Counted from the first letter of the stretch, positions 6,655-59,428 are shown. The stretch is 62,864 nucleotides of DNA from Candidatus Woesearchaeota archaeon (GCA_016185625.1 JACPND010000019.1:1-62864), one strand, 5' to 3'. Translations and numbers: made by a program. Notes: generated by a model from the letters alone, not told the origin.

Positions 6655-6819
6655 GTAATACTTCAGCATCCTGAAGTGAAGCGTTACCGTCTTCTCGCCT
6701 CTGGATGTTTTTATCGAGGACAGACATCTCCGTAAGAGACAACCCTCTTGTCGGCTTGAGGTATTTATCGAGAAAGCTCGACCTTATGACGGTGGTGCTT
6801 CATATTACTGAAGTATTAC
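6655..6819. repeat. MITE-like element, GTAATACTTCAGC family (short copy)
   Basis: 13-nt terminal inverted repeats GTAATACTTCAGC / (G)CTGAAGTATTAC. Shares the internal block ACCCTCTTGTCGGCTTGAnGTAT with 43187..43534. Flanking duplication not clear. Confidence 0.6.
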
Positions 6820-6833
6820 AATGTGTCGAAACA

Positions 6834-6841
6834 TTTAAAAA
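6834..6841 (+). promoter_or_regulatory. TATA box (TTTAAAAA) 32 nt upstream of tRNA-Ser(GCT) +1
   Basis: Position and sequence. Confidence 0.5.
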
Positions 6842-8257: not shown

Positions 8258-8869
8258 TTATACTCTCTCGGAAAGGTCGTTTACTCTCTTCTCAAAGTCA
8301 TTTATGATTACCAATAAACCAACCTGAGAGTGATATCCTTTACTAATGCTATCTTTATCCCAAGGGAAAGATTTCCATTTTTCATCTAAAATCTTATTTT
8401 TCTTAATTTTTATATCATTATGTAATAAGTAAGTTATAGTGTGCGAAATTAGAAGTATTAAAAGTAAAATCCCCAGCAAAGAACTGACTAAGAAAGCAAA
8501 ATATAAAATTTCCATAGAGACAAGAAGTAAAATGGTAAAGCTGACACTGATGCTAAAATGTCTCCAATAAATATGTGCTGTATCTCTGTCCTCCATGCCT
8601 TCTGGGAATATTTTACTAAATACTTTACTGTAGATTCTAAGTCCAAATAGGTAAATATGTGAACCTATTGCAAAAATAAAAACTAAAAAGAAAAATAAAA
8701 GAAGAAGGGGGTTATTTGCAATTATGGTTAATGAGAATAAACTATTCAAATTAGAAAAGTCAATCAATAGTAGGTATAAAAAGAATAGAGATCCCGATAC
8801 AAAAATTGAAGCATATTTTATAATAATCTCCAGATTTAATGGTGTTGATATCTCCCCTATTTTTCTCAC
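8258..8869 (-). CDS. multi-pass membrane protein (GTG start, overlaps upstream stop as GTGA)
   Basis: Four to five hydrophobic helices. Very AT-rich. Translationally coupled to 8866..11379. Confidence 0.5.
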   Translation of the reverse strand: MRKIGEISTPLNLEIIIKYASIFVSGSLFFLYLLLIDFSNLNSLFSLTIIANNPLLLLFFFLVFIFAIGSHIYLFGLRIYSKVFSKIFPEGMEDRDTAHIYWRHFSISVSFTILLLVSMEILYFAFLVSSLLGILLLILLISHTITYLLHNDIKIKKNKILDEKWKSFPWDKDSISKGYHSQVGLLVIINDFEKRVNDLSERV

Positions 8870-11379
8870 TTAATGTTAAAATTCCCCGTTCTCTGATTAT
8901 CATGCCTTTCAATCGGCCATAGTGCGTCTTTGTCTAACGGCTGTGTACCACAGACGGCGTAAACCCGGTTATTTACCGAATTGCAGAAATAAAGAGTTCC
9001 GTTATTTCCTATGGCTAAATTTGCTGGAGATATGCCATTCATTGTTTTGTTATCAAAATTTTGACTCCAAAGTTCTTCTCCGTTCTTTGGATTTAATGCG
9101 AATAAGCCAGCTTCTCCGAAAACGTAAAGCGTTCTTTCTGTTTGTATGTCTCCATTCACTTCTGTTGATTTTGAGGCAATGGCAACGTCGGAAGTATTAT
9201 CCTTAATACCGTTTTGCCAGTAAACATTACCATTTTTAGTTAGAGATCCGTGTCTTGAGTATAAATTACCTTCTGCATCAATAACCGGAAGCTTGTCACC
9301 TACTTTTTCCTGAATCCATATAACTTGTTCATTTGTGGGATGGTATTTTACTAATTGATCATTCGATGTTGTGAAATATAAATTCCCCTCATTATCAAAT
9401 ATGGGGTAACTGGTTATACTACTTTTGATGATAGACGACAAATCTTTCTTCCACTTTTCAGTTCCATTGGGATTTATAGCATAAAGTGTGTAGTTATTGG
9501 CTGCATAAATAGTTTCTTTTGGACCAACGGATGTACCTACATGATTGTAACCAGGATTATATTCCCATTGTTCTTTGCCATTGAGATTTATTGCAGAGAA
9601 AAAGCCGCGATATTTATTAGCCCAGTCGTAATCTGCTAAATTAGCACTTACATAAGCAGTTCCGGCAAGTGAAACTGTAATTTGAAATATACCCCCGCTA
9701 TCAGCATCGCCACTTGCCCCACCCCCCTCTAAGTCTGGGAGATATTGTACCCAATTTTCTTTTAGAATATCACTTGAAATGGACGTTACTTTCAAATTGT
9801 AATACTTATCATCTCTTACGTATACGGCGCCGTTGTTACTAATAGTTGGGTCTATTGCAATTTTGCCATCTCCGTAAAGCTTGAGATTTCCATCTGTTGG
9901 ATTTAGAGCATACAAGAAACCTTTATCATCATTTACAAAGATAGTCCCATTATGGCCTAGAGCTATGAAGGGATACTTTTCAATACTACATTTTAATTTT
10001 GATACCCCGTCTACCCCGTCTGCTGAACTCCATAGCACACTACCAGCCTTAACATTTGGATTGTTGTCATCACAATCCCAGCTGTTCTTTACATAACCTT
10101 CTGGCTGTTGACAAGACGGCGGCATTAAACTATCCGGGTCACCATCTCCGTCACCATCAGAGTCCTTAAACCATACAAATTGCTCAAATCCTTCATCAAT
10201 TTTTCCATCACAGTTATCATCTATTAAATTACAAATTTCCTTTGCCGTTGGATTTACGGCTGGATTCGAATCGTTGCAATCAGTTGCCAGCTTGACATAG
10301 CCAACTGGTTGCTTGCAATCATTGATGATGGCATCTAAAGTTCCAAAGCCATCGTTGTCATTGTCAAAGTACCAGTTTATAGATACAACGTTGTCATCTT
10401 TGACCCCATTACAATCATTGTCAATGCCGTCGCAAAGTTCAGGTTCTGGCTTTGGTGCATCACATTTCCATTCTCCATTAACACATTCTTCAGACCATTC
10501 ACCGCAGCCCATATCGCACTTTTTCGTTAGATTCTCATCAGTTTGACCATTGCAATCATTATCTAAACCATCACATTGTTCTTTGGTAGGCCACACGTAG
10601 CCAATACACTCGCTCAAGACGCCGTTTGTACAATTTCGTATGCCGTATTCGCATTCGCCAGCATCGGTTTCGCCACAGTTTTGAGGAATTCCATCAATGC
10701 ACTCGCACCCCTCGTCTACTGTTTTATCGCAGTTGTCATCTATGCCGTTGCATAGTTCTGGAAATTCTGGAATACCTGGTCTTATTTTAGGATTGTCATC
10801 ATCACAATCGCCTTGAACATCAACAAAACCTTCTGGTTTACAGTAATTATCTATTTCGCCCAATCCCCCATACTCGTCGCCGTCGTTGTCTTGATACCAC
10901 TTTTTGAGTTTTAACTTATGTTCTTGAAAAGGATCAGATATTTTATCATTAAATCCAGGTTTATCAGTAGAACCATCACAATTATCATCAATGCCGTTGC
11001 ATCCTTCTTCGGCATAAGGATTAATAGGCTTAACCTCGTCATTGCAGTCATCTGCATTATCGGCATAGTTTTCCGGTTTGTCTTTTGGGCAATAAAATTT
11101 TGATGGTTTATTAGGATCTCCAAAATGGTCTTTATCACCATCATAAAAGAACTCTTTTTCTTCACATTTAGTTTCTGCTTCATGTTGAACATCATTATAA
11201 ACTGAAACACTATTCCCAAATCTTATCTCTTGGCGGTTATTTTCTAATTCATAAATGTCTTGCTCGGCAGTGATATCAATATTTTTTTGCGCATTGCCAG
11301 AGATATCATTACTGCCGCAAGATAAAGCAATGGCTGACAATCCGGGTACTAATATTTTTTGTATGATTTTTTCTAGCAT
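8866..11379 (-). CDS. surface lipoprotein: MopE-like Cys/Asp repeats plus C-terminal PQQ/BamB-like beta-propeller
   Basis: Start taken at MLEKIIQKILVPGLSAIALSCGSN, homologous to its neighbours' N-termini and 1 nt after the upstream stop. Repeats CNGIDDNCDG..DE and DGDGFG. Propeller repeats such as LYALNPTDG, LYAINPNGTEKW, LFALNPKNGEELW. Confidence 0.7.
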   Translation of the reverse strand: MLEKIIQKILVPGLSAIALSCGSNDISGNAQKNIDITAEQDIYELENNRQEIRFGNSVSVYNDVQHEAETKCEEKEFFYDGDKDHFGDPNKPSKFYCPKDKPENYADNADDCNDEVKPINPYAEEGCNGIDDNCDGSTDKPGFNDKISDPFQEHKLKLKKWYQDNDGDEYGGLGEIDNYCKPEGFVDVQGDCDDDNPKIRPGIPEFPELCNGIDDNCDKTVDEGCECIDGIPQNCGETDAGECEYGIRNCTNGVLSECIGYVWPTKEQCDGLDNDCNGQTDENLTKKCDMGCGEWSEECVNGEWKCDAPKPEPELCDGIDNDCNGVKDDNVVSINWYFDNDNDGFGTLDAIINDCKQPVGYVKLATDCNDSNPAVNPTAKEICNLIDDNCDGKIDEGFEQFVWFKDSDGDGDGDPDSLMPPSCQQPEGYVKNSWDCDDNNPNVKAGSVLWSSADGVDGVSKLKCSIEKYPFIALGHNGTIFVNDDKGFLYALNPTDGNLKLYGDGKIAIDPTISNNGAVYVRDDKYYNLKVTSISSDILKENWVQYLPDLEGGGASGDADSGGIFQITVSLAGTAYVSANLADYDWANKYRGFFSAINLNGKEQWEYNPGYNHVGTSVGPKETIYAANNYTLYAINPNGTEKWKKDLSSIIKSSITSYPIFDNEGNLYFTTSNDQLVKYHPTNEQVIWIQEKVGDKLPVIDAEGNLYSRHGSLTKNGNVYWQNGIKDNTSDVAIASKSTEVNGDIQTERTLYVFGEAGLFALNPKNGEELWSQNFDNKTMNGISPANLAIGNNGTLYFCNSVNNRVYAVCGTQPLDKDALWPIERHDNQRTGNFNIK

Positions 11380-11380
11380 T

Positions 11381-13459
11381 TTAATCCGCCTTCCCGCATT
11401 TTCCTGATTTTGCAACAAATTTTCCATCTGAGCATTCAGACCAACCATCGCAGTCTAGCGAGATGTAAGCTTTAGTAAACCACTCTTTAATCTGTGGATA
11501 GTCAGATCCTATATGTAAATATTCCCCTACTCCTGCTGTTAAAATTCCTAAGTAGTTTGGATTAGCAAATCCAAATCCCAACGCACAAATCTCAATATTA
11601 TTGTTGTTTGCTTTTTCATTTAGCAGCTCGGGAGCATCACTAGATTGGCCGTCAGTAAAAAGAACAATAGCTCTTTGTCGTTCATTATCTTGGAATTGAC
11701 CTATTGCTGCAAGAACTGCCTTACCAATTTCAGTTCCACCGCCAACGCCTAGAGCTTTCACTCCGTCAAGATATTCTTCAAGTTCGACTTTATCCGAAGT
11801 AAATGAATATTGGTTAAAAGGATAAAACTCGTGGTCAAAAGCAATCATTATACCTCGGTCTTTTTGATTCCAGACTTGGATTACGCTTTCCAACCCATTA
11901 TAGACATAACCAATACTACCCTCCATGCTTCCAGATTTATCAATTACGAATACAATATCATAACCTAAGTTTGTACACTTTGTTTTATCAATAACTATAT
12001 CAGTCAACCCATCACAATCATCGTCAACGCCATTACAGATTTCTTCCATATTTGGATTAACATTGGGATTATCACAGTTGCAATCATCTGAGATCGCAAC
12101 ATATCCTTCTGGCTGTTGGCAATAGAAATCTGATTCGTCAGAGCATCCAAATCCATCTCCGTCAGAATCTTTATAGTATTTAGTTAAACCAAGTAATTCA
12201 TTGTTATTGCCGTCGCAATTATTGTCAATATTATCGCATATTTCAACAGCATTGGGGTTAATGTCTGGATTATCACAATCACAATCATCCCCATTGGTTA
12301 CATATCCCTCCATTAGTTGTTCACACTGTTCTTTTAAGATGTCACTAGGGCATCCAAAGCCATCATTATCAGAATCTTTATATAGGATGTATTTTGTGAA
12401 CCCCTCATCTGTTGCCCCGTCACAATCATCATCCTTACCATTACAAATTTCTGGTTCCAGTTGTGGAGCAGTACAATTAACATAAATTCCATTTAGACAG
12501 GTTTCAAATCCATTTTCTTCACAAAGGTTAGAACAATCTTGAGTTAGGTTTTCATCAGTCTGACCATCACAATTATTATCTAATCCGTCACATTCTTCCT
12601 TGGTTGGATTAATTGCTCCCTTACACTCGCCCCACGTTCCCTCAAGACACTTCTGAACGCCATAACTACATTCACCAACATTGGAAGTACCGCAAGGTTC
12701 GGTTTTTCCATTAATACAGGCGCATTTCTCATCTATCGTACCATCAGAGTTATTATCAATCCCGTCACAGATTTCGGGTATATTGGGATTAACATTGGGA
12801 CTTGTATCGTCGGTGTCATTAGGATTTTGTACATAGCCATTATCAGGATGGGTACAAAATAACTTTTTACCGTTAGGATCACCAAACCCATCTCCATCAT
12901 TGTCTTTATACCATTGAGAATGAATTAATCCTTCATTTACGCCATCATCCCCAGGATCGCAGAGTATACCATCCTTATTGGTATCCTCTTCACAATCACA
13001 ATTATCATCTACGTCATTGCATATTTCTGCCGCAGCTGGATTACGATAAGGATTATCATCGTCACAATCATTAAGTGGGGGATTTGAAGGAATCTGGCAA
13101 GCTTTAGCCCAATTTTTATAGGCTTGGCTCCCAGTATCAATATAACCATCTTTGTCTTTATCGGTCTCCGAATTTAGATAAGTGCTGCAATCAATCTCAT
13201 TCTCAGTATCCTTTGAAGATTCTTCTACTGTAGAATCTTGTTGATCAACGGAATAATTATCTGCTTTTGGAGTAGAAGAATCTGGTTTTGAATAAACCCA
13301 CCCATTTATGCTGCTGCCAGTATCACCACTAACATTGATTCTGTTATTATCGTTAGCACCTATATTATCACCACAACCATGCAGGCCTAAAAGTAAGGAC
13401 GTGGTGAGCAGAGTTCTTCTGAACGGTATTTTTTGAAGTATTTTTTCTAGCATTTTCAT
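11381..13459 (-). CDS. surface lipoprotein: MopE-like Cys/Asp repeats plus von Willebrand factor A domain
   Basis: Signal plus GCGDN lipobox. Repeats CDGxDNNCDG. VWA MIDAS DKSGSM and LFTDGQSSD. Confidence 0.7.
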   Translation of the reverse strand: MKMLEKILQKIPFRRTLLTTSLLLGLHGCGDNIGANDNNRINVSGDTGSSINGWVYSKPDSSTPKADNYSVDQQDSTVEESSKDTENEIDCSTYLNSETDKDKDGYIDTGSQAYKNWAKACQIPSNPPLNDCDDDNPYRNPAAAEICNDVDDNCDCEEDTNKDGILCDPGDDGVNEGLIHSQWYKDNDGDGFGDPNGKKLFCTHPDNGYVQNPNDTDDTSPNVNPNIPEICDGIDNNSDGTIDEKCACINGKTEPCGTSNVGECSYGVQKCLEGTWGECKGAINPTKEECDGLDNNCDGQTDENLTQDCSNLCEENGFETCLNGIYVNCTAPQLEPEICNGKDDDCDGATDEGFTKYILYKDSDNDGFGCPSDILKEQCEQLMEGYVTNGDDCDCDNPDINPNAVEICDNIDNNCDGNNNELLGLTKYYKDSDGDGFGCSDESDFYCQQPEGYVAISDDCNCDNPNVNPNMEEICNGVDDDCDGLTDIVIDKTKCTNLGYDIVFVIDKSGSMEGSIGYVYNGLESVIQVWNQKDRGIMIAFDHEFYPFNQYSFTSDKVELEEYLDGVKALGVGGGTEIGKAVLAAIGQFQDNERQRAIVLFTDGQSSDAPELLNEKANNNNIEICALGFGFANPNYLGILTAGVGEYLHIGSDYPQIKEWFTKAYISLDCDGWSECSDGKFVAKSGKCGKAD

Positions 13460-13472
13460 TCTTCCGTTATCA

Positions 13473-15272
13473 TTATTGGCACTGCCCTTTCAGACAGCCA
13501 TTCAGGCAATAAGTCTTCCCTTGAAGCTGACAATTACTTTCCTGAAATACTTTATATATTGTGTCAAAACATTTCCAGCCTTCAGTACAGTCGGAAGTCT
13601 TATTCTGGACGGCATATTCATCCGTTGGTTCTTCACACGACAAATCACAAGTAAACATTATATCAAAGTCGTCTAAATTTATGTTTGAAGCGCTCACAAA
13701 TTTGTAACACTCGCCTTGCCATTTTAGAGTGAAACAGGCTTTATCTTCACACATCCCAACAGCATATTCGAGCGTTTCACCGGTATTGACACTCTTTATC
13801 TTAATTTTTGGACTACTTTTAGTAGATTTGTCTGCACCTTTGTACTCAAATATTTGACTATCAAGACCAAATATCTCTCCTTTAGAGAATATATCGTTAC
13901 AAGCTAATGCACTAAGTTCTTTACACACACCGTTTATATAATAACTGGCAAAAGAATCGTCGCAATCTAATTTATTATCTATAAATCCTTCTGGTTTCCC
14001 GCAATCAAACATGAAAACATCTGGATTGCCAAAACCATCACCATCGACATCCTCATAGAACTTACTGAATGGCAGCCCTTCGTCAACAGAACTGTTACAA
14101 TTATTATCTAAACCGTCACACACTTCTACAGCACCGGGATTGATGTATTTATCATTATCATTGCAATCTCCAGATTTAGGCGCATAGCCTTCTTCTAACT
14201 CTTTACAATCAACCTTAAACGTAGATGAGCCAAAACCATCACTGTCAGCATCTTTATATCCCGTTGTAAATACCAAGCCTTCATCTATTGCCCCATTACA
14301 ATTATCATCCTCTCCATTACATATCTCTTCTTTCGGTTTTGGTGCAGTACAATTAACATAACTTCCGTTTACACAAGTTTTATCTCCAGGTCCACACTGG
14401 TTTGAACAATCTTGAGTTAGATTTTCATCTGTAAGACCATTGCAGTTATTATCCAACCCATCACATTCTTCTTCAACTGGATTTATTGCTCCTTTGCACT
14501 CGCCCCACGTTCCTTCAACACACTTTTGAACTCCATAACCACATTCACCACCATCAGTAAGACCGCATTTCTGAGTAGTTCCATCAATACACTCGCACGT
14601 CTCATCTACATTATTATCACAGTTATCATCTATACCGTTGCATAGTTCTAAAGCAACGGGATTAAGATAGCTGTTATTGTCATTACAGTCATCTTTATTC
14701 TTAACATATCCTTTGGTTGGTTCGTTACAAAATAATTTCTCTAAGCCGCCGGAGTTACCAAATCCGTCTCCATCGTTGTCTTTATGCCAAGGGAAACGGA
14801 GAAAGCCTTCATCGGCATTACCATTACAATTGTCGTCTATGCCATTACAGGTTTCTTTAGCAAAAGGATGAATCTTATCATTACTATCATTACAATCCCC
14901 ATTCCAATCCTCATTCCATGGATCTGGAACGGAGATGTAGCCTCCTGGTGGATTACATGCTTCTATACCGTATTTAATCGGGAAGCCATCTTCATCTCCA
15001 TCCCAGTAGAATTTTTTCTTCTCGCAAGCCGGCTCAATAATTTCTTCGGAGAAACCATCTTGATAAGTTACTTCATCTTTCCCTACAAATTCGTCAATTC
15101 GTCCAGCGTCAGCTTCATTTCCGCTCAAATCAGTTGCTTCATACGTAGAATCAGGATTGATGATATTCTTAGGAGTGTTAGATAGCTCAGAATTCCCACA
15201 ACCCGACAACGTGTACACCAGCGCAGATATCTTTACAACGGGGGCGAATGATCGTAACAGTTTCTCCAGCAT
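13473..15272 (-). CDS. surface lipoprotein: MopE-like Cys/Asp repeats plus Cys-rich C-terminal domain
   Basis: Start at MLEKLLRSF...SGCGNS. Same repeat units as the two downstream paralogues. Confidence 0.65.
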   Translation of the reverse strand: MLEKLLRSFAPVVKISALVYTLSGCGNSELSNTPKNIINPDSTYEATDLSGNEADAGRIDEFVGKDEVTYQDGFSEEIIEPACEKKKFYWDGDEDGFPIKYGIEACNPPGGYISVPDPWNEDWNGDCNDSNDKIHPFAKETCNGIDDNCNGNADEGFLRFPWHKDNDGDGFGNSGGLEKLFCNEPTKGYVKNKDDCNDNNSYLNPVALELCNGIDDNCDNNVDETCECIDGTTQKCGLTDGGECGYGVQKCVEGTWGECKGAINPVEEECDGLDNNCNGLTDENLTQDCSNQCGPGDKTCVNGSYVNCTAPKPKEEICNGEDDNCNGAIDEGLVFTTGYKDADSDGFGSSTFKVDCKELEEGYAPKSGDCNDNDKYINPGAVEVCDGLDNNCNSSVDEGLPFSKFYEDVDGDGFGNPDVFMFDCGKPEGFIDNKLDCDDSFASYYINGVCKELSALACNDIFSKGEIFGLDSQIFEYKGADKSTKSSPKIKIKSVNTGETLEYAVGMCEDKACFTLKWQGECYKFVSASNINLDDFDIMFTCDLSCEEPTDEYAVQNKTSDCTEGWKCFDTIYKVFQESNCQLQGKTYCLNGCLKGQCQ

Positions 15273-15398
15273 ATCTTCTCCCACACACCATTCACCACTG
15301 GGATATAGGTACTTACTTATAAATCTTTTGGTATTTCAGTAGTTTTTCGGTATTTATTCAGAACTATCATTAAATTACCGAAACAGTTCTGGAATTAG

Positions 15399-24768: not shown

Positions 24769-24812
24769 GGTTTGGTGAATAGAGAGCGGTTTTTAATGGT
24801 TTGGAAAGAAAA

Positions 24813-24845
24813 TGCGGACGGCAGGGTTCGAACCTGCGCAAGCAC
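24813..24845 (-). pseudogene. orphan copy of the last 33 nt of tRNA-Leu(CAG) (variable-arm end, T arm, acceptor 3' strand)
   Basis: Identical to 24905-24937. No matching 5' half in the 59 nt between the copies. Preceded by the 9-bp hairpin ATAAGGGGG-AAG-CCCCCTTAT. Confidence 0.6.
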
Positions 24846-24904: not shown

Positions 24905-25026
24905 TGCGGACGGCAGGGTTCGAACCTGCGCAAGCACTAAGCTACTGGACGTTTCTCACGAGAAACCTCAGAGGTTTTGCCTCTCGTGCCTGAATCCAGC
25001 CCGTTTGGCCACTCCGGCACGTCCGC
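24905..25026 (-). tRNA. tRNA-Leu(CAG) with about 38-nt anticodon-loop intron
   Basis: Acceptor GCGGACG/CGTCCGC. Anticodon stem CTGGA/TCCAG, loop TTCAGG..; intron contains the hairpin CACGAGA/TCTCGTG. Long variable arm. T arm GCAGG-TTCGAAC-CCTGC. Discriminator A. Confidence 0.8.
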
Positions 25027-25889: not shown

Positions 25890-27713
25890 ATGTCAGAACT
25901 CGGGTTGAAATGCGGACTGGAAATCCACCAGCAATTGGAAGGAAAGAAATTATTCTGCTCCTGTCCAACGCTTCTGCGAGAGGATGAACCTCATTTCAAA
26001 ATCAAACGGAAATTACGGGCCACGGCCGGCGAAAGCGGAGAGATTGATGTAGCAGCACTTCAGGAACAACTGAAAGGCAAGACGTTTGTCTATGAAGGAT
26101 ATCATGATACGACCTGTTTAGTGGAAACGGATTCCGAGCCGCCGCATGAGGTGAATAGAGATGCGCTGTACACGACCTTACAATTCTCGGCTTTCATGAA
26201 AGCCAACGTTTCTCCAATCGTGCAATTTATGCGGAAAACAGTGGTGGATGGTTCAAATACATCCGGATTTCAACGCACGGGGTTGATTGCCCAGAACGGA
26301 ATCATGGAGACAGATCAGGGAAAAATACATATTACTAATATTTCGCTGGAAGAGGATGCGTGTAAGATCATTTCTGAGACTGCCAATGAGAAAACGTATC
26401 GCCTCGATAGGCTGGGCATTCCGCTCATCGAGATTGGCACTGGTCCGGACATCACCTCGCCGGAACAATGCTTAGACGTTGCGAAAAAGATCGGCTTGCT
26501 GCTGCGCAGTTTACCCGGTGTGAAGCGTGGCTTGGGAACGATTCGGCAGGACGTCAATGTTTCGATTGCCGGAGGAACTCGTATTGAAATTAAAGGCGCG
26601 CAGGAGTTGCGCCTGCTGCCGTTGTTTGTGGAATTGGAAGCCAAAAGGCAACAGGAATTGCTGAAGATAAAAGAAGAATTGAAAAACAAGAAATTGAACG
26701 CCTTCAGTATTTCTGATTTGACTTATGTTCTGAAAAATTCAAGTTCTAGCATTATCCGGAAAACTCTGGACAAGAATGGAAAAATTCTCGGCCTCAAACT
26801 CTCTGGTTTCTCCGGACTTCTAGGGCGAGAATTGATGCCCAAGTATCGTGTAGGCACGGAATTGGCAGGCAGAGCGAAAGTGAAAGCCGGTGTCGGAGGT
26901 ATCTTTCACTCGGATGAATTACCTAATTACGGGATTACTGAACAGGAAGTGCGTGCTCTTCGGAAGGAGCTGGACTGCGGGCCAGAAGATGCGTTGGTGC
27001 TGGTTGCCGACGAAGAGAACAAAGCGCGGACTGCCCTGAGTGCTGTCTATGAACGGCTGCAGGAATTATTTCTTGGTGTTCCTGCGGAAGTCCGCAAAGC
27101 GAATGATGATGGCACGACTTCGTATATGCGGCCCATGCCGGGAGCCGCACGTATGTATCCCGAGACGGATGTACCTCTTATTTTCCCGAATGCCAAAAAC
27201 GTGCACTTGCCGGAATTGCTGGAGCAGAAAATAGTGCGCTTCCAGACGCAATATGGCTTAAGCAAAGATTTAGCGGAATTTGTGGTTAAATCAGAGAAAT
27301 TATTTTTATTCGAAGAGTTGGTACAGAAATATCCGGATATGAAAGCAGCGTATATCGCCGAGACGCTGACGTCAACCTTACTGGACATCAAGCGGCAATA
27401 TCAACTGGATCCGGAGAAATTGACGGATGAAAACTTTAAGGAGTTATTCCGGTATTTATCTGAAAACAAAATACACAAAGGTATTGTATTAGACGTCCTG
27501 ATTGACATGCTGCGCGGCTCATTCAGCATTCGGCATTATGAGACGCTGTCGACGGAGGATATGCATAAAACGCTGAAGGAAATTGTGCAGAAGAATCTGG
27601 GCGCTCCGTTTTCTGCATTAATGGGATTGGCGATGAAGCAGTTGGCGGGAAAAGCTGACGGGAAGACGATTTCGCAGGAATTACAGAAGATTCTGAAGGA
27701 AGGGCACGGGTGA
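25890..27713 (+). CDS. gatE: Glu-tRNA(Gln) amidotransferase subunit E
   Basis: N-terminus LKCGLEIHQQL, 607 aa, archaeal GatE insertion domain and YqeY-like tail. Confidence 0.92.
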   Translation: MSELGLKCGLEIHQQLEGKKLFCSCPTLLREDEPHFKIKRKLRATAGESGEIDVAALQEQLKGKTFVYEGYHDTTCLVETDSEPPHEVNRDALYTTLQFSAFMKANVSPIVQFMRKTVVDGSNTSGFQRTGLIAQNGIMETDQGKIHITNISLEEDACKIISETANEKTYRLDRLGIPLIEIGTGPDITSPEQCLDVAKKIGLLLRSLPGVKRGLGTIRQDVNVSIAGGTRIEIKGAQELRLLPLFVELEAKRQQELLKIKEELKNKKLNAFSISDLTYVLKNSSSSIIRKTLDKNGKILGLKLSGFSGLLGRELMPKYRVGTELAGRAKVKAGVGGIFHSDELPNYGITEQEVRALRKELDCGPEDALVLVADEENKARTALSAVYERLQELFLGVPAEVRKANDDGTTSYMRPMPGAARMYPETDVPLIFPNAKNVHLPELLEQKIVRFQTQYGLSKDLAEFVVKSEKLFLFEELVQKYPDMKAAYIAETLTSTLLDIKRQYQLDPEKLTDENFKELFRYLSENKIHKGIVLDVLIDMLRGSFSIRHYETLSTEDMHKTLKEIVQKNLGAPFSALMGLAMKQLAGKADGKTISQELQKILKEGHG

Positions 27714-27803
27714 GTTGCCGAAGTGATGTTTTGAACGAAAGGTTTTCATAACCGTCTGAGAATTCCCAAAAGCCGATACCTTTATATAGCAGATGCAACA
27801 TTT

Positions 27804-28337
27804 ATGTTGCAGATGATACGGAAATGGAGCAGATATCGGGTTTTGCAGCAGTTTTTCGATTTTCCACGCAAAGCTTTCCTGATTCGCGAACTCTCCAGGA
27901 ATACGAAGCTCGCCCAGACCGCTATTCGAGTTGCCTTGAAAGCGTTGCTCGCGGAAGGACTTATAACGAAGGACAAAAAGGGCTTGTATCCGTCATTCAG
28001 AGCAGTAAGAGAAAGCCTCCTTTTCAAGATTATGAAAGCCCAGAATATCATCTTAAGGCTACATCAGACAGGTATTTTGAGCACGGTTGAGAAAGCAGCA
28101 TATCCATCGTGCATTGTGCTTTTTGGCAGTGCCTCCCGAGGGGAGGATACTGAAGAAAGTGATATTGACCTGTTCGTCCAGGCAAAGAGAATGAAGCTTG
28201 ATTTCAGCAAGTTTGAAAAGGCATTGAACCGCAAGATTAATCTGTTATTCGAGCCTGACCTGAAAACCATCAGTCCAGAATTGCTTAACAATTTGGCTAA
28301 TGGTGTCGTCGTGTATGGATATTTGAAGGTGGTCTGA
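27804..28337 (+). CDS. wHTH plus minimal nucleotidyltransferase (MNT antitoxin-type)
   Basis: LFGSASRGEDTEESDIDLFV NTase motif. N-terminal winged-helix-like region. Confidence 0.8.
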   Translation: MLQMIRKWSRYRVLQQFFDFPRKAFLIRELSRNTKLAQTAIRVALKALLAEGLITKDKKGLYPSFRAVRESLLFKIMKAQNIILRLHQTGILSTVEKAAYPSCIVLFGSASRGEDTEESDIDLFVQAKRMKLDFSKFEKALNRKINLLFEPDLKTISPELLNNLANGVVVYGYLKVV

Positions 28338-28339
28338 AA

Positions 28340-28771
28340 ATGCTTCCCTGGGACGAATCGTCGGATAAAGTAAGCAAAATTCGCCCTGATAGCGAAAAAG
28401 CCAAAGCACTACAGAAAATGACTGAAATGCACGAAAAGCGTGCCAAAATAACTCCTTTGCCGGACATGGCCACGTTGCTCGTCGAGGAATATTATGAAAT
28501 TGTCAAAGAACTCATCACGGCAATCATGAGTTGTGACGGTTGGAAAACCACCAGCCACGAGTTTCTCATCAGCTACTTGGCAAAATTCTATCCTGAATTT
28601 ACTGCTGCCGAAATCGCTTTGATTGACCAGCTCAGGCAAATGAGAAACGACATTGGTTATCGAGGCGTCATGATCAACCCTGAATATGTCCAGAGGAACA
28701 AGGCAGCAATAATCGATGTTATCACCAGACTCAAGGACGTAACGAATAAGCGAATAGCCAAACAACACTGA
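28340..28771 (+). CDS. HEPN-domain protein (toxin-type partner of MNT)
   Basis: Helical 143 aa with LRQMRNDIGYRG at the expected HEPN motif position. Starts 2 nt after the MNT stop. Confidence 0.7.
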   Translation: MLPWDESSDKVSKIRPDSEKAKALQKMTEMHEKRAKITPLPDMATLLVEEYYEIVKELITAIMSCDGWKTTSHEFLISYLAKFYPEFTAAEIALIDQLRQMRNDIGYRGVMINPEYVQRNKAAIIDVITRLKDVTNKRIAKQH

Positions 28772-28789
28772 GGCGCACAATGACGAAAA

Positions 28790-28906
28790 CCTGGTGCGCC
28801 ATTTTCGGCATTAATGGGATTGGCGATGAAGCAGTTGGCGGGAAAAGCTGACGGGAAGACGATTTCGCAGGAATTACAGAAGATTCTGAAGGAAGGGCAC
28901 GGGTAA
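28790..28906 (+). pseudogene. relic copy of the gatE 3' end (last about 38 codons plus TAA)
   Basis: 28808-28904 is identical to 27615-27711. Upstream codons still encode GAPFS with synonymous differences. Confidence 0.85.
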
Positions 28907-28932: not shown

Positions 28933-29763
28933 TTATTGAATGAGTGTTTCTATGGAATTCAGAATTCTTCTTTTTGCAGAAATTGCCGCAGAAACAAATT
29001 CTCTGGTCCGATCAAAATAAGGAACTTTAATCTCTATTTCATCTGTAATGGCACCCTTATTATTTGGATCGAGGCTGCGTAATATAAACACCCGTAGTGA
29101 AGCATCCTCTGATGGTTTTTCAAAAAAATGCAGGACAGGATAATCATCGTAACCCAAATATACTTCAGGGTGTTCTTCTTCCGGAGGGCAGGGGGGTTTG
29201 TAAGAGATATCTAGCGTACCATCATTAAAAAGAAACAGATCGCTTAATGAAGCATCAGCTGAAGGATAATAATGTAAATTTACGCGTTTTTTTTTAGGTT
29301 TTGGATAGAAACTTATTTCTCTCACCTCTTTAAACATTTCCTCCAAACGTTTTTTTTGTCTCCTACCCCGAACGGAATTCTTAGCTTCTTCTTTCATGTG
29401 ATGATAGGTGTCAGGAGAGTATCTTTTTAGAAACAAATATATAAAAGAATACACTTTGTCCAATTCAGAAGGAGAAGAGGGGGATTGACTTTTGTTTGGT
29501 TCGAAATAAGGCACTCTTAAGTGCATCTCATGCCCAATATCACCTGATGGAGAATAATCTTGTAGTACAAACGCTCGTCGTGAAGCATCCTCTGACGGTT
29601 TTTCAAAAAGATGCAAGACCGGATGCATACTTAAAGGCTTTGGTGCTCCCCAATCTATTCTCAAAGTCTCCTGTTCCCAATAAAGAAACGAATCCCTAAT
29701 TAAAAAATCAGTGGCGGGATGATAATGAAAGTTTGCAATCCCGTAGTTAGATGTTGAAGTCAT
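28933..29763 (-). CDS. hypothetical protein with internal tandem duplication (DUF2283-like halves)
   Basis: Repeated blocks HYHPATDF...HLFEKPSEDASRRAFVL...RVPYFEP and HYYPSADA...HFFEKPSEDASLRVFIL...KVPYFD. Confidence 0.45.
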   Translation of the reverse strand: MTSTSNYGIANFHYHPATDFLIRDSFLYWEQETLRIDWGAPKPLSMHPVLHLFEKPSEDASRRAFVLQDYSPSGDIGHEMHLRVPYFEPNKSQSPSSPSELDKVYSFIYLFLKRYSPDTYHHMKEEAKNSVRGRRQKKRLEEMFKEVREISFYPKPKKKRVNLHYYPSADASLSDLFLFNDGTLDISYKPPCPPEEEHPEVYLGYDDYPVLHFFEKPSEDASLRVFILRSLDPNNKGAITDEIEIKVPYFDRTREFVSAAISAKRRILNSIETLIQ

Positions 29764-43186: not shown

Positions 43187-43534
43187 GTAATACTTCAGCT
43201 TCTTGAAGTTAGAAGCTCTGCTATCTTCTCGCTTTTGAAGTGTAAGTCGAGAGCAGACGCAAGAAGGGAGCGTTGCAAGACGGGATAGGTTTCCCGTCTG
43301 CACAGGAAAGAAATCGTTGTTTCTTTCCTTGTGTCCCTTCTGCGCCGAAGGGGAATTCCCTTCGTGCGTTCTCCGTAAGTCTAGTCACTCCGCTTTGCTC
43401 CGTTCGTGTCAAGTCACTAGCGTTCGTGAGTTACCTAACGGTAACAGTTGCTTGTCAGCAACAGACGACCCTCTTGTCGGCTTGATGTATCTATTGAGAA
43501 AGCGCGACTGAGGATAGCAGAGCTTCAGAAAGCT
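43187..43534. mobile_element. MITE (GTAATACTTCAGC family, long copy) with 8-bp target-site duplication, inserted between rps27e and the aIF2alpha gene
   Basis: AAATTCTC at 43179-43186 and 43535-43542. 13-nt perfect terminal inverted repeats. No credible ORF. Confidence 0.8.
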
Positions 43535-43558
43535 GAAGTATTACAAATTCTCTAAACA

Positions 43559-43566
43559 TTTATAAA
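43559..43566 (+). promoter_or_regulatory. TATA box (AACATTTATAAAT) 32 nt before ATG 43591
   Basis: Consensus match. Lies just downstream of the MITE duplication. Confidence 0.6.
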
Positions 43567-50116: not shown

Positions 50117-50524
50117 CTAAATAACTGTTGTTTTCATCTCCTCAATGCCTTCAAAATCTGGATCGCCAGAATACAGAACTGTGCAATTGGCAAGTATGGC
50201 CGTCGCCAGATGAATCATGTCCGCATAAGATACTCTTCGTTCTTTGCTAAAGTATTTTTTCCTCAAGTCGGCAGCTAATGAAGCCACGGGCAAAACAACA
50301 GGAACAATAACCAGATTTGGAAATGTTTCGATTATGTGTACTTGTTCATGTGCTAATTCCTCATTGATCTTGCCCAACCTGTACTTGATCTCTGTAATGT
50401 TTAACGCATTGATCATGGCCTTCTCTCTCCCACTCTGTACCGACTCTAGGATTTCCTTACAACGTTCAAACTTCTTTCCTTCCGCAAAAAACTCGATCCA
50501 AATCCAAGAATCAAGAAAAATCAT
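50117..50524 (-). CDS. vapC: PIN-domain toxin VapC
   Basis: MIFLDSWIWIEF... (N-terminal Asp) and ...VLYSGDPDF. Confidence 0.85.
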   Translation of the reverse strand: MIFLDSWIWIEFFAEGKKFERCKEILESVQSGREKAMINALNITEIKYRLGKINEELAHEQVHIIETFPNLVIVPVVLPVASLAADLRKKYFSKERRVSYADMIHLATAILANCTVLYSGDPDFEGIEEMKTTVI

Positions 50525-50759
50525 GGGACCACTCTTTTTTACCTTCTTTGATCATCGCTTTGATTTCAGAGTCAGAAAACCGCAGCAGCTGCCGAAGTTC
50601 CAGCATTCGAGCTACAGGATTTTTATATGTTGGAACAAGAACAACTTCTCCATGTTCAGGGATGAACGCAATTCTCCTTCCTTTTTCCAACCCATATTTT
50701 TCTCTGATCTCTTTCGGTATGGTCACCTGTCCTTTCGAAGAGATTATCGCTTCAGCCAT
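50511..50759 (-). CDS. vapB: AbrB/SpoVT-type antitoxin VapB
   Basis: SSKGQVTIPKEIREKYGL. Overlaps vapC by 14 nt. Confidence 0.85.
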   Translation of the reverse strand: MAEAIISSKGQVTIPKEIREKYGLEKGRRIAFIPEHGEVVLVPTYKNPVARMLELRQLLRFSDSEIKAMIKEGKKEWSHDFS

Positions 50760-50801
50760 CTTACTTTTCTGAAAGAAGTAAGAATTTATAAATGTTTTGC
50801 T

Positions 50802-50925: not shown

Positions 50926-51436
50926 CCTGCTCATAAATAAGCAACCTCGCCTTTTCAAGAACTTCCTTACACGTTTCAGACAAGAGAGTAAAGAGCTTTC
51001 TATCGGTGAAAGTTTGCTCCAGCCCATACTGAAAATCTTCCCGTACTTCAATGATACTCAAATCAATTTCTTTGGCTTTGGCAATTAAGAACATATCAAT
51101 GAAAGACTGGTCTAAGGAAATAATGCCCTGTTCTCTTAGGAGTTCAATTATTGCTAAAGTGCATTCCTGATTCCTGCTTTCATAACCGTGTTTTCTGATG
51201 ATTGCCAAGAAGCAGTGATAGGCACAATAAAAGAATCCGCTGGCAGACCAGTCAGAATATCCATGCTCATCAAAAAAAAGGGCCGCCTCGAAATTATGCT
51301 GTGCTTTATCGAGATGCCTTTTTGCGCTATTGTTGTCAGGTTCAACTTGGATTAAGCCACGATGGATGCCTTGCTCTTCTAATTCCCGTTTGGCTTTATT
51401 TAAGCACCACTGCACTTTCTTTTCTGTTTGTAACAT
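50921..51436 (-). CDS. HEPN-domain protein (toxin-type partner of MNT)
   Basis: Helical 171 aa with VREDFQYG at the same relative position as RNDIGYRG in 28340..28771. Lies 3 nt after the MNT stop. Confidence 0.65.
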   Translation of the reverse strand: MLQTEKKVQWCLNKAKRELEEQGIHRGLIQVEPDNNSAKRHLDKAQHNFEAALFFDEHGYSDWSASGFFYCAYHCFLAIIRKHGYESRNQECTLAIIELLREQGIISLDQSFIDMFLIAKAKEIDLSIIEVREDFQYGLEQTFTDRKLFTLLSETCKEVLEKARLLIYEQV

Positions 51437-51439
51437 GAT

Positions 51440-52069
51440 TTACCTCGATTCAGGCTTAGGAATGGCAAAATAACCATAGCCCTGCTGTACCTGCAAGATG
51501 GTTTGAATAATCACCTCATACCCCCGCAGAACATAGCCAAATTTAATGGCGTTGAGGAGCACGGAATCAGGTTTCTGGATATTATTTTTGAAATCCTTTG
51601 GCGACTGCCAGACAACGTGGATCGGCTTCAAAGAAACTTTATTTTCTTTTTGTACTATCTGTTGGGCAGCAGTAAGGTGTTTCTCTTGAACAACCACCAG
51701 AAGATCTATATCTCTGGCTTTGGCATAGTCTCGTACAGCCGAGCCAAAGATAATAACTGCCTCTGTTATCGGAAAGAGTTTTTCAAATTGATGCCGCCAT
51801 CGTTGTGCCTGTTGCTGTGTTTCGGTCATCAGAAGCATTTTGACCATGTCGCAACCATAGGGGTTAGCAAGATTTGCTTTGTAAAAAATTGCTCTTCCGT
51901 ATCGTCTGCTGATGACCAGTTCCTCTTGGTGGAGTGTTTTCACCACATTCAGCGCTCCCCGACGAGTAATTCCTAGTTTGGCAGCGAGCGTATTGGCATT
52001 ATAATCACTGGCAAAATCTTTGTACAGGAGCAAAAGTGCTTTTCCTTCAGTGGTGGTAATGAGTTTCAT
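51440..52069 (-). CDS. wHTH plus minimal nucleotidyltransferase (MNT antitoxin-type)
   Basis: IIFGSAVRDYAKARDIDLLVVV. N-terminal HTH-like LAAKLGITRRGALNVVKTL. Confidence 0.8.
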   Translation of the reverse strand: MKLITTTEGKALLLLYKDFASDYNANTLAAKLGITRRGALNVVKTLHQEELVISRRYGRAIFYKANLANPYGCDMVKMLLMTETQQQAQRWRHQFEKLFPITEAVIIFGSAVRDYAKARDIDLLVVVQEKHLTAAQQIVQKENKVSLKPIHVVWQSPKDFKNNIQKPDSVLLNAIKFGYVLRGYEVIIQTILQVQQGYGYFAIPKPESR

Positions 52070-52261
52070 TGTGAATAATTATTTCACATATGTGAAATTA
52101 TATTTCCTATATAAATGTTTTGGTGATTTTGGTCAACAGGATGACAGACAAATCTCTGGTGGCAATGAAATATATTCTCCAACATATATTTTGGATATAT
52201 ATATATATATTTAAATGGTTGTTTCTTCTTTCTAACATCATATCAAAAATGAGGTGTCCTT

Positions 52262-53206
52262 ATGAATAAACTGAAACAGTTCATTCTACCATTAGTTTTA
52301 TTGAGTATCCTAATCTTACTTGTCAGTTGTGCGCCGAAAACAGAATATACTGGCGACGTCACTCCGGAAGAAGCGGCTGCCGTATCCACAGAAGAAGGAA
52401 AAACGTTGGCTGGTCAGGCCGTGAAGGTTAATTTTGAAAATTGCGCCGATCCGGATGCGACGAGTCAATTTGATCAGAACCAGTTACTAACCAAATCCGT
52501 TACTACTTTTGGTTCCGGTTCACGAGAGGATAAATGTTATACGTGGAATAAGGGAACACCATCAGAAAAAACGAGGTTGATCGAAGGAACGTGCAAGCAA
52601 GAAGGCGGAAAGTCAAAATTCATATATTGGTATGCGGATTGTGATGTGACGTTTGGGAAAGGGACGAAATGTGTTGATGGTGCTTGTGTGCCGAGTTGCG
52701 ATCCTATTCAGTTGAGTCCTTACTGTACTTTTGATACATTGAATAATGTTGACACACTAGTTGACGTATCAAAGAATCCCTGTACTGGCTTAGTAAATGT
52801 TGTACAAACATCTTGTCCTGGTGGATGTACTAATGGGGATTGTATACAGGGTGGTTCGTCGGGTGGCGGAGGCGGATATGGTTTCATTTCCGGTGATTCG
52901 TGTGAGGCCGATATCCTGGTAATAAATAAAGATAAAAAATATGATTGCTCAAAAGAAGCGGGGTGGATATTCAAAGCAAAAACCTGTGCGCCCCCCATTG
53001 AAGAATATTCTTCGTTGGTCAAGTATGTCTGTGCAGAAGCATGTACCCCTGGGCAGACCGCCATTTCCTGTGACGAGGATGGTGATTTCCACGAACAGAC
53101 CTGCAATCAGAATGGATTTGGTTGGAGCCTTGCGAAGAAGAAGGGATGTCCTGAAGGCCAAACCTGTAAAGTAGATCCTGTAAAAAAATCTGGTATTTGT
53201 AAATAA
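52262..53206 (+). CDS. secreted Cys-rich lipoprotein
   Basis: Signal ending LLVSC, about 30 Cys, G-rich linker. GAGGTG lies 7 nt before the ATG. Confidence 0.55.
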   Translation: MNKLKQFILPLVLLSILILLVSCAPKTEYTGDVTPEEAAAVSTEEGKTLAGQAVKVNFENCADPDATSQFDQNQLLTKSVTTFGSGSREDKCYTWNKGTPSEKTRLIEGTCKQEGGKSKFIYWYADCDVTFGKGTKCVDGACVPSCDPIQLSPYCTFDTLNNVDTLVDVSKNPCTGLVNVVQTSCPGGCTNGDCIQGGSSGGGGGYGFISGDSCEADILVINKDKKYDCSKEAGWIFKAKTCAPPIEEYSSLVKYVCAEACTPGQTAISCDEDGDFHEQTCNQNGFGWSLAKKKGCPEGQTCKVDPVKKSGICK

Positions 53207-53260
53207 TGCCGAAAAGCTCTTTCCACTTTTTAGGCTTCAGAAGTTACCGTTTTTTTTTCT

Positions 53261-53971
53261 TTACTCTTCTTTCCTTCTTAACCCTTTCACTTTCCCAAAC
53301 GCAAACACCTCTCCTTTGCTCACGATAAACACCTCAAAATCGTCGAGCTTCTGCAAATACGGACTGAGCAGCTGCTCTTTCAAAACATCCGTCCCTTCCG
53401 TCAATGGATTGAAACTCGGCATGGCGATCAATTCTTTGCGCTTCCATTTCCCTTTCAGAAAACATTTGTATTTCTCCCGTTTACTCTTCTCCCTCAGGGT
53501 AATCGCCGGATGCTCGTGCCCGATAATGATCCGTTTCGCTTTCGTATTATGAAGTTCATCACCATGGAAAATAGCGGTGTCACCAATCGCTAAATCTTTT
53601 ACCACGTTGATGTTTCGTCTCTTTGCCAGCGGACCGATAATCATATCGTGATTCCCTTTCACAATAATCAATTCATGGCCATGCTCCAATAAAAAATCAA
53701 TCAGTTGCAGCACTTCTTTCCATTCCTGCCGTAATACTCTGCCAAATTCATGTTTTAAATCTCCATTAATGACGATTCTTGCCGGTGTTACCCTCTTGAA
53801 AATCTCCCTTAATTTTTGGAGTATTTCTTCTAACTGAAACTTCGGCACCATCATGCCCTGCTGCTGCAAGGCTTCTTCATAGCCGACATGAAGATCACTG
53901 ATAATCAGCGTTTTCTCTTTCTTCAGCCATAAAGCGGTTTCAACAATCTCCATTCCTGTGGTTATTTCCAT
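53261..53971 (-). CDS. metallophosphoesterase (MJ0037-like)
   Basis: ISDLHVG, INGDLKH, VKGNHD, GHEHP. Confidence 0.85.
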   Translation of the reverse strand: MEITTGMEIVETALWLKKEKTLIISDLHVGYEEALQQQGMMVPKFQLEEILQKLREIFKRVTPARIVINGDLKHEFGRVLRQEWKEVLQLIDFLLEHGHELIIVKGNHDMIIGPLAKRRNINVVKDLAIGDTAIFHGDELHNTKAKRIIIGHEHPAITLREKSKREKYKCFLKGKWKRKELIAMPSFNPLTEGTDVLKEQLLSPYLQKLDDFEVFIVSKGEVFAFGKVKGLRRKEE

Positions 53972-59127: not shown

Positions 59128-59180
59128 AAGTGAAGAATATTGTGGAAGTATAAAATATTTTCTACAGAGCCTGCAAAAAG

Positions 59181-59413: not shown

Positions 59414-59428
59414 GCAAAAAGGGTGCCG

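Follow-up and report, generated by a model that had tools for sequence, protein, structure and literature searches.

The window analysed here is a stretch of 62,864 nucleotides from a Candidatus Woesearchaeota archaeon (GCA_016185625.1, JACPND010000019.1:1-62864). Between positions 25,890 and 28,906 it contains an intact gatE gene, encoding subunit E of the Glu-tRNA(Gln) amidotransferase, followed on the same strand by a two-gene cassette of the MNT-HEPN toxin-antitoxin (TA) type and then by a relic of the gatE 3' end. The GatE homologs place the host among the Woesearchaeota/Nanoarchaeota (DPANN archaea). An initial annotation, made from the sequence alone, read this arrangement as a Campbell-type (single-crossover) integration in which the target gene is regenerated. 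We describe the locus, a second one of the same architecture in the window and a set of related loci, and then consider how such cassettes may have been inserted.

A direct repeat of 97 nt, without a single mismatch, connects the end of gatE with the relic (27615-27711 and 28808-28904), at the coordinates given in the initial annotation. Similarity continues upstream of this core for 15 nt, rather than the roughly 18 nt first estimated. The differences reported there are indeed synonymous: the gene has GGC GCT CCG TTT TCT and the relic GGT GCG CCA TTT TCG, all four changes fall on third codon positions, and both versions encode GAPFS. Comparison of the two copies also bears out the change of stop codon, TGA in gatE and TAA in the relic. 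No similarity is left beyond either end of the repeat. This gives a target-derived direct repeat well over 30 bp in length (112 nt, 97 of them exact). The five differences over 113 positions all lie in the 16 terminal positions, a distribution with p = 6e-5 if they were randomly spread.

The assembly was checked using Logan unitigs (k = 31) from five sequencing runs. These reproduce the cassette with both of its junctions (unitig L001 corresponds to window positions 27682-28837) as well as the downstream gene. Both junction sequences are real and were not made by the assembly. Each unitig at the gatE locus ends exactly 30 nt (k-1) inside the repeat, as all Logan unitigs do at this 97-nt de Bruijn branch point, and the same k = 31 unitigs would be obtained from a mixed population in which an empty gatE chromosome and a separate 1193-bp circle or strain variant had been threaded together. 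We consider such an artefact highly improbable. Both junctions are present in five independent runs, and the same architecture is found in many other assemblies with imperfect repeats (80-96% identity) that assemblers resolve easily. Even if it applied, the free 1193-bp circle would carry the gatE tail and would itself be the intermediate proposed below.

A repeat search over the whole window identifies a second pair, 53254-53384 and 50795-50925 (131 nt, 94% identical), with an exact core of 92 nt (53293-53384 and 50834-50925). It flanks a second cassette, 22 kb from the first. The order on the minus strand is a metallophosphoesterase gene (53971-53261), an open reading frame (ORF) of 314 aa on the opposite strand, MNT2, HEPN2 and a relic. 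This is the kind of case that the initial annotation had proposed to look for, that is, a further MNT-HEPN pair followed by a relic of the upstream gene. The copies show eight differences in their last 38 nt; seven of these are within the gene and six of the seven are on third positions. The relic keeps both its reading frame and its stop codon. Over the catalytic core, MNT1 and MNT2 share just 27% identity, and no alignment of the two HEPN proteins is possible. Because the proteins are so dissimilar, the two inserts are different cassettes that were inserted independently, with the same architecture. Logan unitig L007 spans the second insert and breaks at the repeats.

Table 1. Features of the gatE locus and of the second, metallophosphoesterase locus. 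Host-type and element-type are assigned by analogy with loci L112 and L113 (see text).
Feature	Coordinates	Strand	Basis or remarks
gatE (Glu-tRNA(Gln) amidotransferase subunit E), intact, landing gene	25890..27713	+	Pfam GatB_N, GAD, GatB_Yqey; homologs named GatE in Woesearchaeota/Nanoarchaeota
Repeat copy A, 3' end of working gatE	27600..27712	+	Putative host-type 15 nt 27600-27614, exact core 27615-27711, first stop-codon base
60-nt stretch unique to the gatE locus	27713..27772	+	Opens with GA completing the TGA stop; outside region homologous to related cassettes
Cassette promoter/operator (putative)	27773..27803	+	TATA-like CTTTATATA; palindrome GCAACAT/ATGTTGC spanning start codon
Winged helix-turn-helix (wHTH)-nucleotidyltransferase (MNT/MntA-like antitoxin), 177 aa	27804..28337	+	Pfam Polbeta/NTP_transf_2, weak HTH matches
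Predicted HEPN-fold protein (putative toxin), 143 aa	28340..28771	+	AlphaFold model and Foldseek
Conserved cassette tail GGCGCACAATGACGAAAACCTGG	28772..28794	+	Right end common to homologous cassettes in other contexts
7-bp hairpin GGCGCAC(N15)GTGCGCC, straddling cassette/relic junction	28773..28801	+	-14.2 kcal/mol, z = -2.4
Repeat copy B, relic gatE 3' end	28793..28906	+	Putative element-type 15 nt 28793-28807 (4 synonymous changes), exact core 28808-28904, TAA 28904-28906
Metallophosphoesterase gene, landing gene of second instance	53261..53971	-	Pfam Metallophos
Second-instance repeat copy A, 3' end of working gene	53254..53384	-	Exact core 53293-53384
Second insert, 2.3 kb	50926..53253	-	314-aa ORF, MNT2 and HEPN2
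314-aa ORF in second insert	52262-53206	+	No Pfam or NCBIfam match
MNT2	52069-51440	-	Pfam Polbeta/NTP_transf_2
HEPN2	51436-50921	-	Pfam HEPN
Second-instance repeat copy B, relic 3' end, abutting HEPN2 stop codon	50795..50925	-	Repeat alignment

Cassette genes and cassette limits

The MNT protein of the gatE cassette is recognised by Pfam (Polbeta, 4.7e-08; NTP_transf_2, 1.5e-07) with weak wHTH matches, and its match to the NCBIfam MntA model is below the cutoff (32.5 versus 60 bits). The GS...DxD motif is present, and its residues G108, S109, D120 and D122 are invariant in 36 aligned homologs (alignment A1). The two genes are co-oriented and adjacent, with a 2-nt gap, as in an operon of the MNT-HEPN (type VII) module, and the same pairing is present in most of 80 related loci taken from GTDB species representatives.

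The second protein has no sequence match in Pfam, NCBIfam or, using phmmer, PDB, and its PDB profile matches are marginal. An AlphaFold2 model built on 45 homologs has a predicted local distance difference test (pLDDT) score of 95.9. The best Foldseek match of this model is 2hsb (probability 1.00, TM 0.63/0.71), followed by 7ae8, 1ufb, 7bxo and 6m6u, and the matches include solved HepT toxins of MNT-HEPN pairs. Four of the 46 members of the family match PF05168. The product of 28340-28771 is thus predicted, from the model, to have the HEPN fold. The canonical Rx4-6H motif is replaced by R102-NDIG-Y107, with a tyrosine at the position expected for the histidine. R102 is invariant in both HEPN alignments (A2 and A3), Y107 is invariant in A2 and at least 90% conserved in A3, and H73, invariant or nearly so, is located outside the motif. 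In the solved MntA/HepT systems a nearby tyrosine is the site of AMPylation. The family may be a variant with different or lost RNase chemistry. Overall, the module resembles type VII MntA/HepT in its gene order and spacing, in the nucleotidyltransferase motif and in the proximity of its HEPN fold to solved HepT toxins; it differs in the N-terminal wHTH carried by this MNT and in the R-NDIG-Y motif without the catalytic histidine.

Homology between the window cassette and those in unrelated contexts is confined to 27773-28794 (identity 84% for L089, 80% for L009 and 71-75% for L090, L099 and L010), and such cassettes share the same limits of about 1.0 kb. The right end is sharp: the window, L089 and L009 match as far as ..GAAAACCYGG, about 23 nt past the HEPN stop, and then diverge fully. 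In the window the relic begins exactly at this right end. On the left, homology to related cassettes begins at 27769-27775 in nine comparisons. This side is not sharp, and a conserved left end is unsupported, since the upstream sequence common to L089 and L009 is at least 45 nt longer than what either has in common with the window. The motif CGATACATTTATATA..CAGaTG is kept upstream of MNT in most related loci, and the conserved upstream part is probably a promoter/operator, as expected for an autoregulated TA operon. The stretch 27713-27772 probably represents flanking DNA imported from a donor. The initial annotation had the insert holding only the MNT and HEPN genes; both are there, but 'only' must be dropped because these 60 nt lie outside the conserved cassette. 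The hairpin that it placed at the HEPN/relic junction exists. It is partly built of relic sequence and its stability is only modestly above that of shuffled sequence.

The inserts carry no recombinase gene. Their content is limited to MNT, HEPN and, in the second, the 314-aa ORF. Pfam searches with the insert genes and with about 50 ORFs of at least 100 aa from the window returned no integrase or transposase, and no terminal inverted repeats were found between 25 and 31 kb in the window, both in agreement with the initial annotation. A transposon was rejected for this lack of terminal inverted repeats and for the variable length of the direct repeats. Three other types of element were also considered and rejected. 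An integron gene cassette would need an attC site of at least 57 nt, whereas the HEPN stop and the relic are only 23 nt apart; neither attC nor IntI is present. For a diversity-generating retroelement the differences (C/T, T/G, G/A, T/G) are not adenine-specific and no reverse transcriptase was found. A retro-copy of an mRNA does not fit because the cassette includes its own TATA box and operator.

Flanking repeats in related loci and the origin of the relics

In the related loci, the 300 nt upstream of MNT were compared with the 265 nt past the HEPN stop, using a score cut-off of at least 14. Locus-specific direct repeats hugging the cassette reach this score in 14 of 53 loci. Of the pseudo-cassettes set at other positions of these loci, 4 of 220 do so (Fisher p = 4e-8), an enrichment of about 15-fold for the cassettes. 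None of 400 mismatched upstream/downstream pairs scores above 13. In an independent set of JGI metagenomes, flanking repeats are present in 20 of 48 usable loci. The usual end point of copy A is 45-95 nt ahead of MNT, and copy B begins no more than about 30 nt past the HEPN stop; more than 20 loci have their repeats within about 100 nt and 30 nt of the MNT start and the HEPN stop, respectively.

The repeats are from 20 to more than 200 nt long and are different in every locus. They derive from at least 20 different target sequences, including gene 3' ends, gene 5' ends and promoters, in either orientation. The repeat may be the 3' end of the upstream gene (gatE in the window; L112), the 3' end of a convergent downstream gene (L025; L038, an H+-pyrophosphatase gene), the 5' end of the downstream gene (L023, L076 and L161) or promoter-like intergenic DNA (L052 and L068). 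One copy is always intact. Many homologs in the protein database are on contigs of 1.0-1.5 kb, and several GTDB contigs end about 100 nt before MNT. This would be expected if the flanking repeats break DPANN metagenome assemblies at these cassettes.

One further MNT-HEPN unit, a distant member of the family, occurs in three lake-sediment samples in three forms. In L142 (2118-4547) it is accompanied by a single copy of the 5' end of a protein-kinase gene, while L143 has a second copy of 218 nt (91% identical). L144 is a contig of 2455 nt, circularly permuted, with a terminal overlap of 147 nt containing one mismatch; it is compatible with either a circle or a tandem array.

The nature of the differences between repeat copies was examined by pooling 17 repeat pairs that overlap a flanking ORF. 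The differences on codon positions 1, 2 and 3 number 11, 10 and 47, respectively, so that 69% (47 of 68) are on third positions. Had the spare copy decayed neutrally, the maximum third-position share would be about 46%, even including synonymous drift in the working copy. The observed excess is significant against both this value (p = 1e-4) and one third (p = 2e-9), and it persists if the two window cases are omitted (37 of 56, p = 0.002). Forty-two codon changes are synonymous and 21 non-synonymous, and frames and stop codons are kept. Because the differences are mostly synonymous and on third positions, both copies evolved under selection in working genes of different lineages. Judging from this pattern, either the relic or the end of the working gene is a foreign allele, not a decayed target-site duplication. 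This lends weight to the view taken in the initial annotation that the gatE relic is a diverged allele fragment rather than a simple tandem copy.

A true long target-site duplication would have a different history: the cassette would have been joined into a staggered break with nicks 20-200 nt apart, the gaps filled in, and the differences acquired later. Such a history is what the term 'insertion with long target duplication', used for restriction-modification (RM) units, implies (PMC2853133), and the identity of the 97-nt and 92-nt cores speaks for it. It does not, however, account for differences that cluster at the repeat ends, are overwhelmingly synonymous or on third positions and include the replacement of one stop codon by another. 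Nor does an HEPN RNase offer an obvious route to DNA breakage. A duplication made at insertion seems to us very improbable, and a pair of related loci provides a further argument against it, since the part of copy B beside the cassette travels with the cassette and mismatches the host.

These loci, L112 and L113, are syntenic, belong to two deeply diverged hosts and have a similar cassette behind the same gene, which encodes a 364-aa A24 prepilin-type peptidase. The landing genes are only 42% identical on third positions. In contrast, identity is 94-100% over the spacer, MNT, HEPN, the tail and the beginning of copy B. In detail, the spacer before MNT is 96% identical, the third positions of MNT and HEPN 94% and 79%, the 47 nt past HEPN 100% and copy B as a whole 91%. 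Identity then falls to 54% in the 140 nt past copy B. The segment exchanged between the two loci is the cassette with the gene-end fragment only. A four-way alignment of the repeat copies reveals a 22-nt core, CAGGGCAGCCTTTTCTACTA, common to all four. Upstream of this core the A copies are host-specific and the B copies alike. Downstream the situation is reversed: the A copies are alike (..CTGCATTTrTAA, ..FYYLHL*) and the B copies host-specific (..IRLAL*, ..MLL*). The junctions are host/element and element/host hybrids, the signature of one reciprocal crossover. The gene-end fragment is thus part of the mobile unit, and the present tail of the working gene came with the element.

The layout of the window is compatible with such attL/attR-like hybrid junctions around a common core. 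By analogy with L112/L113, GGCGCTCCGTTTTCT, the TAA stop of copy B and the DNA after 28906 would be native, this TAA being the original gatE stop followed by the original downstream DNA, while GGTGCGCCATTTTCG, the TGA stop and the 60 nt at 27713-27772 would have been brought by the element.

The same observations bear on whether each cassette is the remnant of a larger integrated plasmid or virus whose integrase and other genes have been deleted, leaving an addiction module between att sites. TA modules are the likeliest survivors of the decay of an element, their loss being harmful, and the second insert does retain an additional ORF of 314 aa. On the other hand, repeats hug the cassette in more than 20 loci, and repeated independent deletions would not end so neatly. 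Moreover, only the cassette and the fragment have been exchanged between L112 and L113, and homologous cassettes in unrelated contexts have common limits. We regard a remnant as quite improbable.

In all three same-strand cases involving a gene 3' end (28772-28906; 50795-50925; L112, 4958-5085) the relic is in the reading frame of HEPN and is separated from it only by the stop codon(s). The L112 and L113 relics differ at five positions, each change being synonymous. Translation of the relic into a small peptide is possible, but the sample is too small to judge. Translation as an extension of HEPN was rejected, as stop codons intervene and the common frame, found in three cases only, may be due to chance.

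Mode of insertion

We favour Campbell-type insertion (single-crossover or, equivalently, ends-in) of the cassette together with a fragment of the target gene end, and assign this a probability of about 0.6. The model, with regeneration of the gene, is that of the initial annotation, and it is now supported by the second cassette in the window, the enrichment of repeats at related cassettes, the allelic differences between copies and the hybrid junctions of L112/L113. The circularly permuted contig L144, which occurs alongside repeat-flanked and single-copy forms of its unit, is a further point in its favour.

Each insert would be a small addiction cassette consisting of an MNT antitoxin, an HEPN toxin and an autoregulated promoter, with no recombinase gene, and carrying at its right end a 3'-end fragment of a host gene from another lineage. 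The unit, either circular or linear with matching ends, would enter a cell having the orthologous gene. There, one reciprocal crossover within the shared stretch (97 nt for gatE and 92 nt for the phosphoesterase gene), most likely carried out by the homologous recombination machinery of the host, would insert it. On the left, the product would comprise the 5' part of the host gene with the element-borne tail and TGA, the 60-nt donor flank and the cassette. On the right, it would comprise the start of the element-borne fragment joined to the native tail with its native TAA and the native downstream DNA. The insertion would be tolerated because it leaves the essential gene whole. Normally the insert would be looped out again through the direct repeats, but cells losing it would presumably be poisoned by the longer-lived toxin, so that the structure persists. 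Capture of the first gene fragment probably occurred by aberrant excision from a donor with the cassette beside that gene.

Host homologous recombination is favoured for the crossover because the targets are many and unrelated, the shared blocks range from 20 to more than 200 nt, homology is found on both sides and no recombinase is present. Element-borne homology on both sides of the crossover amounts to 15 nt in the window and about 60 nt in L112. Homologous recombination needs such two-sided homology; a site-specific recombinase does not.

The principal alternative is a non-autonomous site-specific element, in which the two copies would be attL and attR and an integrase would act in trans from a larger element or virus targeting the same gene end. 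Such an element would resemble the cis-mobilisable elements derived from integrative and conjugative elements. Tyrosine recombinases produce just the hybrid structure around a short core that is seen in L112/L113, and archaeal elements with an integrase often enter protein-coding genes in their 3'-distal part (14 of 68 in Thaumarchaeota, PMC6563490). The cassette has a precise right end. Att-like scars also exist in this genome, as a tRNA at 24905-25026 has its 3' 36 nt duplicated 92 nt away, and one locus, L114, contains an array in which a single sequence of about 45 nt is repeated. However, no integrase was found in the inserts or among the tested ORFs of the 63-kb window, nor were MNT relatives found on viral contigs. 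In addition, at least 20 different targets would demand many recombinase specificities, the length of the repeats varies, and a site-specific system would have no use for element-borne homology that reaches as far upstream of the crossover as it does here. We judge this alternative unlikely, while keeping it as a rival.

Several points weigh against Campbell-type insertion by host recombination. About 60-75% of the cassettes have no detectable flanking repeat. No circular form of the gatE element was seen among the k = 31 unitigs, in which an integrated cassette looks the same as an empty site with a free circle. Neither was an empty gatE site found in a close strain: an exact look-up of GatE returned no match, the closest GatE among 5.8 billion proteins is 72% identical, and the two closest GatE proteins are encoded in surroundings that have neither a cassette nor synteny with the window. 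The HEPN protein lacks the canonical Rx4-6H histidine, and its toxicity and the resulting addiction are only presumed. At the gatE locus, 97 nt of identity lie beside differences at four of five codons, and this needs either later gene conversion or a mosaic donor. The precise right end in three unrelated contexts is easier to reconcile with a defined site of cutting or joining than with aberrant excision at random. The 22-nt identical core of L112/L113 is short for homologous recombination. Finally, in L114 (1-4324) the sequence TTTTCATATCTTTCCTATCGTAAAGCCGAAATAAAAGGATTTT, of about 45 nt, occurs four times, at the boundaries of successive MNT/HEPN cassettes. It is because of the precise right end, the need for gene conversion, the 22-nt core and the L114 array that a trans-acting site-specific recombinase stays a rival.

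The L114 cassettes are in both orientations, and the copies of TTTTCATATCTTTCCTATCGTAAAGCCGAAATAAAAGGATTTT are 69-91% identical to the reference copy and spaced 1056, 752 and 1360 nt apart. The array suggests repeated insertion at one landing sequence and looks more like accretion at a recombinase site.

Relation to known systems and other features of the window

The closest analogue is provided by RM units, for which 'insertion with long target duplication' was first described in Helicobacter and subsequently in several bacteria (Nobusato et al. 2000, Gene 259:99; Furuta, Abe and Kobayashi 2010, PMC2853133). The units have no mobility genes and are flanked by target-derived repeats of tens to hundreds of bp and of variable length (PMC2853133; PMC3874152). 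The repeats often span the start or stop codon and the target gene survives (PMC2853133). The mechanism is given as unknown, the authors suspecting DNA breakage by the restriction enzyme; the screen retained no archaeal case and TA systems go unmentioned there (PMC2853133). A later review attributes long target duplication to RM systems only (PMC3874152).

The cassettes described here are similar in being selfish addiction units without transposase or integrase, with target-derived repeats of variable length and an intact target gene. They differ in that the host is archaeal and the cargo is an RNase-type TA pair (MNT-HEPN) and not restriction-modification. What the two have in common can therefore not be DNA cutting by the cargo. 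Neither the codon-position pattern nor the hybrid junctions found here are mentioned for RM units in the sections of PMC2853133 and PMC3874152 used; both speak for a crossover with a foreign allele borne by the element and against a duplication made at insertion.

Archaeal integrase elements offer a second comparison. The integrated mobile genetic elements of Thaumarchaeota target the 3'-distal region of protein-coding or tRNA genes (PMC6563490). As in the present case, the element carries the 3' end of its target, the gene is regenerated, and the flanking attL/attR repeats form hybrid junctions. Those elements, however, are multi-gene (from kb to tens of kb) and have their own tyrosine integrase, whereas the units described here are of 1.2 and 2.5 kb without a recombinase.

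The layout is also that obtained in the laboratory by Campbell-type (insertion-duplication) integration. In this engineered process, a crossover in a cloned fragment gives the order fragment, insert, fragment, and if the fragment includes a gene end, the products are one complete and one truncated copy. In the literature searched, we found no description of a natural cassette family that routinely uses this type of integration, nor of TA cassettes with long target-derived repeats. The initial annotation was aware of no such description for MNT-HEPN modules. Our searches agree, with the proviso that the RM units are a close analogue (PMC2853133). What is new is thus the occurrence of an RNase-type TA version in DPANN archaea, and the recognition of the 'duplication' as an element-borne foreign allele joined by a crossover.

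Chromosomal TA loci clearly move, although most of them lack a transposase or integrase, and the route they take is an old open question. The window and about 30 related loci give a concrete and testable answer: the cassette would travel with a piece of its landing gene and enter by one crossover, leaving an often-essential gene intact and a tell-tale foreign-allele relic beside it. It is possible, although we hold this only tentatively, that recombinase-free mobility using a homology arm taken from a host gene end is general for addiction modules, both TA pairs and RM units. If so, host recombination would insert the cassette into the orthologous gene and regenerate the gene, and the toxin would penalise loop-out. 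This would explain both the movement of chromosomal TA systems without transposases and the foreign-allele appearance of the relics. It would also reframe the puzzle of long target duplication by RM units, which dates from 2000: the shared property may be addiction, stabilising an otherwise unstable structure, and not DNA cutting by the cargo. The relics could, in addition, serve to trace gene flow between lineages.

Several other features were noted in and around the two loci. For the closest GatE homolog (P0123; loci L184, L185 and L186), three of four assemblies end 36-300 nt past the gatE stop, and the DNA behind gatE may be variable or repeated in these populations too. Downstream of the gatE relic, a 276-aa ORF (28933-29763, minus strand) without a Pfam match has an internal duplication (29079-29141 and 29562-29624, 86% identical). 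Directly behind the second relic, also on the minus strand, are a VapB gene of the AbrB type (82 aa, 50511-50759) and a VapC gene with a PIN domain (50117-50524). The phosphoesterase gene is thus followed by a small TA island. No third copy of its end was detected behind VapB/VapC.

The tRNA at 24905-25026 (minus strand) contains an intron; it is detected with Rfam (44 bits) but was missed by ARAGORN. Its last 36 nt, covering the T arm and the acceptor 3' strand, are repeated exactly at 24810-24845. The intervening sequence is only 56 nt long and includes the GC hairpin AAGGGGGAAGCCCCCTT. This arrangement has the appearance of an att-type scar or of a minimal insertion with target duplication.

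Two other repeats are present. A sequence of about 330 nt occurs at 59172-59502 and 62240-62539 (91% identical with small indels, 3.05 kb apart). It covers the upstream region and the first 100 nt or so of a 596-aa ORF and, in the other copy, again the start of an ORF, this one of 104 aa; a gene of the IF-2B family lies between the copies on the opposite strand. This may be another gene-end duplication around an insert or, alternatively, paralogs sharing a promoter and N-terminus. A non-coding stretch of about 113 nt occurs at 6729-6841 and 43455-43566 (80-85% identical, 36.7 kb apart). The second copy is just upstream of the aIF2-alpha gene. The stretch includes a hairpin (GCTTCAG..CTGAAG) and a TATA-like box at its end, and has no Rfam match. 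Finally, most repeat families of the window come from three large tandem ORFs at 8866-15284 on the minus strand (860, 692 and 603 aa), which contain many Cys-rich MopE-type metal-binding motifs as well as PQQ/beta-propeller repeats.

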